The position numbers were made by a program, and so were the translations under genes. A stretch of DNA of 64,000 nt. Source: Sediminispirochaeta sp. (lineage in GTDB: Bacteria > Spirochaetota > Spirochaetia > B11-G9). Below, piece by piece: positions 16,128 through 17,445 of this stretch (position 1 is the first letter of the stretch; every line of letters begins with the position of its first letter). A model generated the notes under the pieces. That model ran no database searches. It worked only from the letters and a program-made list of their open reading frames with translations, and was not told the DNA's origin. The DNA is taken from NCBI GenBank assembly GCA_024763455.1, contig JANTFL010000001.1, positions 26,678 through 90,677 of the forward strand. Reading direction: 5' to 3'.

Positions 16128-16199
16128 TGGGGCGTTGGCAAGTGGTTAAGCCCCCGGTTTTTGGTGCCGGTATCGTAGGTTCGAATCCTACCGCCCCAG
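16128..16199 (+). tRNA. tRNA-Gln (anticodon UUG)
   Basis: Acceptor TGGGGCG/CGCCCCA, anticodon arm CCGGT-TTTTGGT-GCCGG, T arm GTAGG-TTCGAAT-CCTAC. It is collinear with E. coli tRNA-Gln1. No CCA is encoded. TATAAT lies at 16102-16107 upstream. Confidence 0.85.
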
Positions 16200-16230: not shown

Positions 16231-16872
16231 ATGGAGCAGAAGACTCTCACAGGTTATGAGAGAAAGGAACTGAAAAAAGGTCCTTCACGGAGACTGAGAA
16301 AAGAAGGCAGAATACCAGCAATAATTTATGGTCATGATACTCCAAAACCAATATCCGTTGACCGGAAAGAGTTTCATACAAAATTCAAAAACAGTTCCGC
16401 GAGTACTATTCTCACCATTAAGGTGGGAAAGAAAGACTATGAGGTCCTTGTAAAAGGGTTTCAGGAAGATTATATCAAAGAAGTAATAACTCATATTGAT
16501 TTCTTTGAACTCGAAAGAGGAAAGCTTCTTAAAACCAAGATTCCTGTACGTGTAGAAGGTTCAGCTGTCGGAGTACGGGAAGGGGGACTTCTTGAGCAGA
16601 GGATACATGAACTGGAAGTGGAATGTCTTCCCAAAGACATCCCTGAGGTAATTGTTGTTGACGTTAGTGAGCTTGAAATAGGGGAATCTATTCACGTTGA
16701 GGATTTGAATGTTGCGGAAGAGGTAAAGGTTCTTAACCTTCCCAATCAGACAATTGTCAGTGTTACAAGCTTCAAGGAAGCTCCTGTTGAAGAAGAAGCA
16801 GAAGGAGAAGAGGAAGGACTTGAAGAAGAAGCAGCAGCTGAAGATTCCGGAGAAGAAGAAGAGGAAGCATAA
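16231..16872 (+). CDS. rplY: 50S ribosomal protein L25 / general stress protein Ctc (long form with acidic tail)
   Basis: 213 aa. It has LRKEGRIPAIIYG, both Ctc beta-barrel domains and a poly-E/A C-terminal tail. Confidence 0.9.
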   Translation: MEQKTLTGYERKELKKGPSRRLRKEGRIPAIIYGHDTPKPISVDRKEFHTKFKNSSASTILTIKVGKKDYEVLVKGFQEDYIKEVITHIDFFELERGKLLKTKIPVRVEGSAVGVREGGLLEQRIHELEVECLPKDIPEVIVVDVSELEIGESIHVEDLNVAEEVKVLNLPNQTIVSVTSFKEAPVEEEAEGEEEGLEEEAAAEDSGEEEEEA

Positions 16873-17445
16873 CTGTTTCTATTTATCGGTCTGGGCAATC
16901 CGGGAGAGAATTATTCGCAAACCCGGCACAACGCCGGGTTTCTTGTCTTGGACAGGATTGCTCAGAAATATTCAATTAATTTCAAGAAACCTTTCTTTAA
17001 AAAGTATCTCTACGGCAGAGGACAGTTACACGGCAAAGAGTTCATTATCGTAAAACCCCTTACTTATATGAATAATTCAGGGTTTGTTATCCCGGGATTA
17101 CTTAAAAAATTCCGCATCCCCTCTGAAAAAATGGTAGTTATCTGCGATAACATGGATCTGCCCTATGGTATGTGCAGAATAAAAAAGAAAGGGTCCGGTG
17201 GAGGGCACAATGGGCTCCGGTCCATTGATTCTTTTATGGAAGGCAGGGATTATACACGCCTCTTTGTAGGAGTTTCCAGACCGGATCGTAGTGTGAGTAT
17301 TATCGATCATGTCCTTTCTGTTCCCGATGGTTCCGACTTCCGGGATTTTATGAATGGGGTTGATAGAGCGTCGGGGGCCGTGGAAACGATAGTAGACAAA
17401 TCTGTAGAAGAAGCAATGCATGAATATAACAGAAGAATTACTTGA
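16873..17445 (+). CDS. pth: peptidyl-tRNA hydrolase (non-canonical start; 5' end uncertain)
   Basis: The conserved Pth N-terminus LFLFIGLGNPGENYSQTRHNAGF is encoded at 16873-16941, upstream of the track's TTG at 16948. There is no ATG/GTG/TTG between the rplY stop (16870-16872) and 16948. The candidate start is CTG at 16873, with GAGGA 7 nt upstream. Confidence 0.8.
   Translation: MFLFIGLGNPGENYSQTRHNAGFLVLDRIAQKYSINFKKPFFKKYLYGRGQLHGKEFIIVKPLTYMNNSGFVIPGLLKKFRIPSEKMVVICDNMDLPYGMCRIKKKGSGGGHNGLRSIDSFMEGRDYTRLFVGVSRPDRSVSIIDHVLSVPDGSDFRDFMNGVDRASGAVETIVDKSVEEAMHEYNRRIT

Follow-up and report, generated by a model that had tools for sequence, protein, structure and literature searches.

Two described systems are closest to the locus reported here. 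The first is infC, the gene of IF3, which starts at AUU in E. coli and many other bacteria and whose weak start codon acts as the sensor in an established autoregulatory loop. The second is the termination-reinitiation of same-strand gene pairs of the trpB-trpA type (Huber et al. 2019, 2023; PMC10666635), of which the classical examples have ATGA or TAATG overlaps and canonical start codons, and often encode complex subunits needed in equal amounts. CTG is an allowed but rare bacterial start codon (bioRxiv 10.1101/063800; bioRxiv 10.1101/520783); CUG initiated at about 1–2% of AUG in the first E. coli reporter set (bioRxiv 10.1101/063800), and the decoding of near-cognate starts by formylmethionyl-tRNA (fMet-tRNA) is established (restated in bioRxiv 10.1101/520783). 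Few essential bacterial genes are documented to have a conserved CUG start. We describe such a case in a 64,000-nucleotide stretch of a Sediminispirochaeta sp. contig (JANTFL010000001.1, positions 26,678 to 90,677; hereafter the window), in which pth, the gene of peptidyl-tRNA hydrolase (Pth), most probably begins at a CUG codon that directly abuts the stop codon of rplY, the highly translated gene of ribosomal protein L25.

The pth case is like the AUU of infC in kind and like abutting reinitiation pairs in layout, and it represents no new mechanism. As with infC, a translation-related housekeeping gene carries a conserved near-cognate start, initiation would be low and IF3-sensitive, and the start is often missed by gene finders. 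The two differ in the codon, which is CUG (a first-position mismatch) in pth and AUU in infC, and no autoregulatory loop such as that of infC is known or shown for pth. Moreover, the CTG of pth is limited to part of one phylum, with sister lineages using ATG, GTG, TTG or upstream overlapping starts. With the trpB-trpA type the locus shares same-strand neighbours at short spacing (0 nt in the window, −8 to +11 nt among relatives), a Shine-Dalgarno (SD) motif within the 3′ end of the upstream gene, and a junction too short for a promoter or terminator. Unlike in the classical coupled pairs, the restart codon of rplY-pth is near-cognate, and L25 and Pth are presumably needed in very different amounts.

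The rplY product matches the Pfam families Ribosomal_L25p and Ribosomal_TL5_C, and its gene ends with GAA GAG GAA GCA TAA, coding a Glu-rich C-terminal tail. After TAA the same frame continues as CTG(16873) TTT CTA TTT ATC(16885) GGT CTG GGC AAT CCG GGA, which translates as LFLFIGLGNPGENYSQTRHNAGF. A first-pass annotation made from the letters alone had pointed out this junction, and both the sequence and the list of open reading frames (ORFs) bear out its reading of the rplY stop, of the continuing pth frame, and of a GAGGA motif 7 nt 5′ of CTG 16873, a functional spacing for a ribosome-binding signal. With an in-frame TAA upstream and the next canonical codon lying 25 codons in, the complete conserved protein cannot be obtained from any ATG, GTG or TTG. 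Among the long ORFs of the window (at least 110 codons between stops), pth is the only one without a plausible canonical start: in two suspicious ORFs, Obg (10401) and a Memo-like ORF (41234), the Pfam domains begin 3′ of their canonical starts, and two further ORFs that were checked had no Pfam match and hence gave no reading on their starts. The CTG start is thus gene-specific, at least within the 64-kb window. Rfam searches at gathering thresholds found five tRNAs only, with neither initiator tRNA nor rRNA within the window, and no known leader or cis-element at the rplY-pth junction.

Table 1. Coordinates of features at the rplY-pth junction in the window, and the corresponding junctions in related loci
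Feature	Position	Strand	Remarks
rplY/ctc (ribosomal protein L25, long Ctc form)	16231..16872	+	213 aa plus TAA; ORF listing, Pfam
rplY stop codon TAA	16870..16872	+	directly abuts the pth start; intergenic distance 0
pth (peptidyl-tRNA hydrolase, Pth1 family)	16873..17445	+	190 aa plus TGA
CTG, proposed pth initiation codon (decoded as fMet)	16873..16875	+	comparative evidence
SD-like GAGGA	16861..16865	+	in the last rplY codons GAG GAA; 7-nt spacer (16866-16872) to CTG
Weak predicted hairpin	16863..16880	+	GGAAGCA (16863-16869) pairs with UGUUUCU (16874-16880), loop UAAC; minimum free energy and centroid structures
ATC, alternative near-cognate codon of the first-pass annotation, rejected	16885..16887	+	19 nt from GAGGA
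9-bp GC-rich hairpin AAACCCGGC-ACAAC-GCCGGGTTT, then CTTGTCTTGG	16919..16941	+	flagged terminator-like
CAC, His19	16927..16929	+	5′ of the first canonical start; aligns with E. coli Pth His20
TTG, first in-frame ATG/GTG/TTG, rejected as real start	16948..16950	+	used by gene callers
Junction of L001			TAA CTG TTT CTC TTT GTC GGT
Junction of L171/L172			TAA CTG TTT CTT TTT ATC GGT
Junction of L003/L004			TAA CTG TAT CTT TTT ATT GGT
Junction of L002			TAA CTG GAT TTT CTC TTT GTT GGT
Junction of L008/L169/L170			TAA CTG GCT GTT TTA CTT GTC GGA
Junction of L006 (Pth 53% identity)			TAA g CTG GAC TTT ATA TTT ATC GGG; pth in frame +1 relative to rplY
Junction of L010			TAG GGA CTG
Junction of L017			TAG CGT CTG CTG

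The 25 codons 5′ of TTG 16948 are coding and are needed for a complete enzyme. Translated from the CTG, the protein matches the full length of the Pth1 profile, Pfam PF01195 (Pept_tRNA_hydro), with residues 3–186 corresponding to profile positions 1–183 of 183 (1.2e-55; 188.7 bits against a curated cut-off of 27), and because this match begins at residue 3, the region 5′ of TTG 16948 belongs to the Pth domain. Solved Pth chains in the PDB also align from residue 3, with homology over the full length (E = 1e-24 to 6e-36); for E. coli 2PTH, query residues 3–172 pair with chain residues 4–174 with an offset of +1 at the N-terminus. In an alignment of 13 sequences, G6, L7, G8, N9, P10, T17, R18, H19, N20, D92 and N113 are invariant, comprising the GLGNPG loop, the His, and the equivalents of Asn10 and Asp93. 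His19 corresponds to E. coli Pth His20, the catalytic base of that enzyme, and the residues equivalent to Asn10, His20 and Asp93 are presumed to have the catalytic roles described for E. coli Pth. The protein itself is ordinary: with E. coli Pth (2PTH) and other solved Pth1 enzymes it shares GLGNPG, TRHN, and Asn, His and Asp near Asn10, His20 and Asp93, and the window gene differs from theirs only in start codon and junction.

Public gene calls for the window and its close relatives (P0001–P0004) give Pth proteins of 165–176 aa, and these calls would be right if Pth were made from TTG 16948 (165 aa), or if pth were a decaying pseudogene with another enzyme covering its function. Translation, Pfam match and alignment agree with the first-pass annotation that a start at TTG 16948, before which there is no ATG, GTG or TTG, deletes the N-terminal motif: residues 1–25 would be removed, including the GLGNPG loop, N9 and the invariant H19. 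The codons so skipped encode a conserved stretch of protein, with synonymous to non-synonymous codon differences of 6:1 (L001), 9:3 (L171) and 9:4 (L003), and because the differences to close relatives are mostly synonymous, the 25 codons 5′ of TTG 16948 are under coding constraint. Furthermore, the TTG position is not kept (ATA in L003, ATT in L002), and the downstream start differs among relatives, being TTG in the window, ATG at METRHN in L003 and a TTG two codons earlier in L002. The whole pth ORF is intact in all lineages, and pth is, as read from its sequence, a normal and functional Pth1 gene; either version of a downstream start or a decayed gene is therefore very improbable.

To compare the junction in other genomes, we took as close relatives the contigs that encode truncated Pth gene calls and read their junctions individually. 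Broad Pth-alignment scans of genome and metagenome contigs added at least 160 Pth loci without the window's closest clade, and supplied at least 124 control loci from other phyla together with many distant spirochaete loci. For 70 loci with rplY upstream, the segment from the stop codon to GLGNPG was tabulated by script, and we defined a set of 30 spirochaete-like loci by L25 proteins about 41% or more identical to that of the window and by record titles. Among the matches listed, 123 of the 124 loci from other phyla have an ATG, GTG or TTG 3–15 codons 5′ of the first Gly of GLGNPG. Among the 30 spirochaete-like loci, a canonical start is found at −3 to −15 in 14, only at −1 or −2 in 2, and not at all in the other 14. 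Eleven of these last 14 carry an in-frame CTG at −5 or −6 (window, L001, L171, L003, L002, L006, L008, L010, L017, L092 and L013), and six further lineages have the CTG together with a possible canonical alternative (L041, L104, L014, L016, L020 and L025).

The comparison of related genomes, which the first-pass annotation had proposed as a check, thus finds the CTG layout conserved in many contigs from other samples, with Pth identities to the window from 85% down to about 45%; in L092, L016 and L013 the CTG is kept at other spacings from the rplY stop. CTG is the sole near-cognate codon common to all relatives without a canonical start, and in L001, L002, L008 and L010 no other codon between the stop and GLGNPG is a single base away from ATG. 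When the codons of the clade are aligned, codon 1 is CTG in 7 of 7 members, and only 4 of 36 columns with conserved amino acids of four-fold or higher degeneracy are codon-invariant in these seven. The near-cognate codon is thus kept while neighbouring synonymous sites vary: the Leu codon at position 3 appears as CTA, CTC or CTT, as TTA in L008, and is replaced by ATA (Ile) in L006. CTG accounts for 24% of the Leu codons in the window, where CTT is commoner. On this sequence comparison, pth translation likely begins at CUG 16873.

As a side observation, the sole non-spirochaete locus without a canonical start among the 124 listed is L058 (uncultured Lachnospiraceae RUG11870), which reads GTC TAT ATC ATT TTC 17 codons 5′ of GLGNPG, where relatives have ATG TAT ATT ATC. 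This GTC may be a base error (GTG to GTC) in a metagenome-assembled genome (MAG), or another non-canonical start.

The first-pass annotation had offered either CTG 16873 or ATC 16885 as the initiation codon, and the same comparison backs the former and speaks against the latter. ATC is a near-cognate start of genetic code table 11, is in frame and 5′ of GLGNPG, and ATC, ATT or ATA stands at its position in the window, L003, L171 and L006; initiation there would give MGLGNPG. The position is occupied, however, by GTC in L001 and L008, by GTT in L002 and by CTT in L010, all of which lack a canonical start, and because these codons occur in loci where CTG alone is near-cognate, ATC 16885 cannot be the shared start. 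In addition, ATC has no SD-like motif 5–10 nt upstream, the GAGGA being 19 nt away, and a start there leaves no residue before the Gly, whereas canonical homologues almost all have 3–5. A start at ATC is thus improbable. A sequencing or assembly error that removed an ATG, GTG or TTG would also leave such a junction, and the window appears to be MAG-derived, a kind of assembly in which single-base errors occur. The Logan assembly L168 (run SRR19843167) is nevertheless 100% identical over 2453 nt including the junction, possibly from the same reads, and the CTG recurs in over 10 related lineages whose sequences come from different samples and assemblers, so that an error can hardly be credited.

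The signals around the CTG bear on how ribosomes reach it. A GAGGA, GGAG, GAGG or AGGA core lies 5–9 nt 5′ of the CTG in about 14 of 17 CTG lineages on our reading of the junction table; such a core is found at about 15 of 48 approximate gene starts in the window, mostly 5–8 nt upstream, and rplY has its own GGAG at 8 nt. In L010 and L017 the stop codon has moved, as GAGGA-ATAGGGA-CTG and GAGGA-ATAGCGT-CTG, and because the 7-nt spacing persists after a shift of the stop by one codon, the SD signal tracks the CTG and not the stop. In six lineages the CTG directly follows the rplY stop (0 nt), four have 3 nt between the two and another two have 2 nt; the remaining lineages, one each, have 1, 7, 9 (L020), 11 (L092) and −8 nt. 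Spirochaete-like junctions with canonical starts are equally tight (TAA GTG, TAA TAT ATG, TAA GCT ATG), and the rplY-pth gap in other phyla reaches about 190 nt. In E. coli and Haloferax, termination-reinitiation drops sharply as the distance grows, and −8 to +10 nt is treated as predictive of coupling (Huber et al. 2023, PMC10666635). The window pair, on one strand at 0 nt, lies inside this range, and the −8 to +11 nt of the CTG lineages essentially equals it.

In the window and its closest relatives pth is in frame with rplY (frame 0) and TAA alone stands between the two genes. The first-pass annotation had listed low-level readthrough of this TAA, giving an L25-Pth fusion, among its options, and such a fusion might supply the Pth activity. 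Readthrough fails as a conserved mechanism. Frames 0, +1 and +2 are all found among CTG lineages, with frame shifts or overlap in six of them (+1 in L006, L016 and L013; +2 in L014, L025 and L092), and in-frame and out-of-frame cases are about equal when related clades are counted once. Because the pth frame varies, an L25-Pth fusion is not what selection maintains. TAA is normally the tightest stop codon, which counts against readthrough as well, and no readthrough-promoting structure follows directly on the stop; the strong hairpin begins 47 nt downstream. We therefore regard a readthrough fusion as very unlikely.

Two routes to the CUG are left to be weighed. Free 30S subunits might bind GAGGA and start at the CUG independently of rplY, in which case the abutting stop would reflect genome compaction only. 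An SD-like core at typical spacing is what such initiation needs; the SD-to-CTG spacing is better kept than the stop-to-CTG spacing (7 nt in the window, L010 and L017), and L092 (+11 nt) and L020 (+9 nt) are at the edge of the reinitiation range. On the other hand, all spirochaete-like junctions are tight (−8 to +11 nt, against about 190 nt elsewhere), and 30S initiation under IF3 proofreading works poorly on a near-cognate codon, which counts against independent initiation. A weak hairpin is also predicted over the junction; its loop comprises the rplY stop and the first base (C) of the CUG, part of the SD is paired with the first Phe and Leu codons, and similar pairings of a purine-rich tail with a pyrimidine-rich N-terminus are predicted in L001, L171, L002, L010 and L025. 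Such a structure would partly mask the SD and the CUG, and a terminating ribosome would open it; this is only suggestive, and the pairing may be simple complementarity of a purine-rich acidic tail with pyrimidine-rich hydrophobic codons. Of the confidence that we place in a CUG start, only a minor share falls to independent 30S initiation.

Coupling of pth initiation to rplY termination is likely though unproven, and we lean towards it by a modest degree. Because the CUG abuts the rplY stop, the initiating ribosomes probably come from rplY, and because the stop-to-CTG spacing is tight in all relatives, reinitiation is the likely way in which ribosomes are delivered. The termination-reinitiation that the first-pass annotation had listed as another option is compatible with these short spacings, though the same sequences would fit de novo 30S binding as well. 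We infer fMet initiation at the CUG, its dependence on rplY termination, and a step-down in expression, as follows. Initiator fMet-tRNA would read CUG 16873, giving MFLFIGLGNPG… of 190 aa, and GAGGA in the last two Glu codons of rplY would set the start site from 7 nt upstream. Most of the ribosomes that initiate would come straight from termination on the heavily translated rplY message. While UAA occupies the A site, the P site would be on GCA 16867–16869, 1 nt from the SD, and a forward move of 6 nt after release would bring the CUG into the P site, 7 nt from the SD, which is the optimal distance; because a 6-nt move has this result, the SD could capture post-termination ribosomes in register. 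Near-cognate starts reach only a few per cent of AUG efficiency in E. coli, and the outcome would be a step-down of roughly two orders of magnitude on one mRNA, from ribosomal-protein-level L25 to enzyme-level Pth, with no intervening terminator or promoter. The junction would accordingly offer a clean natural system in which to study the reliance of near-cognate initiation on termination-reinitiation, and the unequal output of operon genes without extra promoters or terminators.

Several points weigh against a CUG start or against its use as proposed. CTG is also an ordinary Leu codon, and since the Leu of GLGNPG is likewise invariantly CTG, codon invariance alone is weak evidence. The sister lineages L007, L009, L088 and L090 have no CTG; they read …GAA TAA t ACT/TCT/CCT TTA/CTT, with TTA or CTT at the equivalent place and no canonical start between the stop and GLGNPG, and in L007 the TTA stands exactly 7 nt 3′ of GAGGA, at the place of the CTG. 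An ATG 8–13 codons upstream inside rplY is seen in L007, L088 and L090, and pth in these four sister lineages presumably starts at an upstream ATG or GTG inside rplY. The CTG solution is thus not universal. In a neighbour-joining tree of Pth, built from one short protein and thus weak, the CTG lineages are interspersed with canonical ones, and the tree is too weak to tell an ancestral CTG from repeated gains. GAGGA may be a by-product of the Glu-rich L25 tail (GAA/GAG) and is easy to obtain by chance, and the CTG lineage L016 has no SD-like motif nearby. The mean unpaired probability of the start region is 0.34–0.81 in CTG-type and 0.32–0.66 in canonical-type relatives, and because predicted accessibility thus shows no clear difference, the hairpin over the junction is given little weight. 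Finally, the case for the CUG start rests on sequence comparison for this organism and its relatives.

A second hairpin, inside pth, was flagged as terminator-like. It comprises pth codons 16–23, CAA ACC CGG CAC AAC GCC GGG TTT (Q-T-R-H-N-A-G-F), and is followed by the T-rich run CTTGTCTTGG; the fold z-score of the region is −2.97, and the six wobble choices that it needs have a joint probability of 6.5e-4 under the codon usage of the window. Of the 30 spirochaete-like loci, 14 can form at least 8 of these 9 pairs, compared with 10 of 127 other loci (P = 2.6e-6, Fisher's exact test, phylogeny ignored). The register of the window also occurs in L001, L002, L003, L171, L008, L011, L015, L021 and L089, and a shifted register is seen in L005, L007, L009, L026, L088 and L090; in a sister group the shifted hairpin is 11 bp long, CATGAAACCAG…CTGGTTTCATG. 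Paired cells amount to 68.8% against 68.5% in shuffles, so that no covariation beyond column composition was found, and the register of the hairpin beats slid registers. The hairpin occurs with every start-codon type, and it could be a partial terminator after rplY, a stabiliser of the mRNA end, or a by-product of clade-specific codon choice.

Taken further, Pth synthesis might be wired to ribosomal-protein translation, with the CUG reached only by ribosomes that terminate at the rplY stop and are caught there by the SD in the last rplY codons, and the hairpin inside pth adding a transcriptional or mRNA-stability step-down; we hold this extended proposal to be doubtful. If it were true, Pth would be made at a constant, small proportion of L25, and hence of ribosomes, its output would scale with the growth rate, and near-cognate reinitiation would serve as a natural device that sets the stoichiometry of a ribosomal protein and a ribosome-rescue enzyme.

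The CUG start has consequences for public annotation, since gene finders limited to ATG, GTG and TTG truncate or mis-extend Pth across this spirochaete group. The closest database proteins are truncated calls of 165 aa (P0001), 165 aa (P0002, 85% identity), 176 aa (P0003, 70%), 167 aa (P0004, 64%), 125 aa (P0013, 69%) and 155 aa (P0030, 53%). Because truncated calls lack the catalytic His, an essential Pth can look defective in reconstructions of metabolism or of essential genes. At least one public annotation already uses the CTG start: by exact-sequence look-up, TVR33167.1 (NCBI nr, 195 aa, 'MAG: aminoacyl-tRNA hydrolase [Spirochaetaceae bacterium]', from contig REDW01000068.1, which is L017) is the L017 Pth beginning at its CTG 3 nt after the rplY TAG. 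A collection of 15 billion proteins holds truncated Pth calls for the window, L003 and L008, and the full-length CTG-started Pth of the window, L003, L008 and L010 is absent from it. Full-text literature searches found no paper on a pth CTG start, the rplY-pth junction or spirochaete CTG starts. The calls could be corrected by a rule that takes, after the rplY stop, a CTG 5–6 codons before GLGNPG with GAGGA about 7 nt upstream.

It was also observed that Pth 5′ ends are systematically wrong in the calls P0001–P0005, P0010, P0012, P0013, P0030 and P0051 and at loci L001–L007, where the proteins are either 125–176 aa from a downstream ATG or TTG, or 203–222 aa, instead of about 190; in the longer calls the acidic tail of L25 is read out of frame, which adds a Lys/Gln/Arg-rich extension. 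At L005 a plain TTG start (TTG CTG TTT ATT GGT) was likewise missed by the caller. The L25 tail itself is about 35 residues long and Glu/Ala-rich, and an acidic tail is kept in all spirochaete-like relatives examined.

The local gene order is ispE, spoVG, tRNA-Gln, rplY, pth, tilS, ftsH, and the string rplY-pth-tilS-ftsH is tightly packed throughout. The tRNA-Gln(UUG) gene (16128–16199) lies between spoVG and rplY and ends 31 nt 5′ of the rplY start. At the other end of pth, the tilS ATG at 17420 overlaps the end of the gene (stop at 17443–17445) by 26 nt, and the pth-tilS overlap is also present in the gene calls of L001, L002, L003 and L005.

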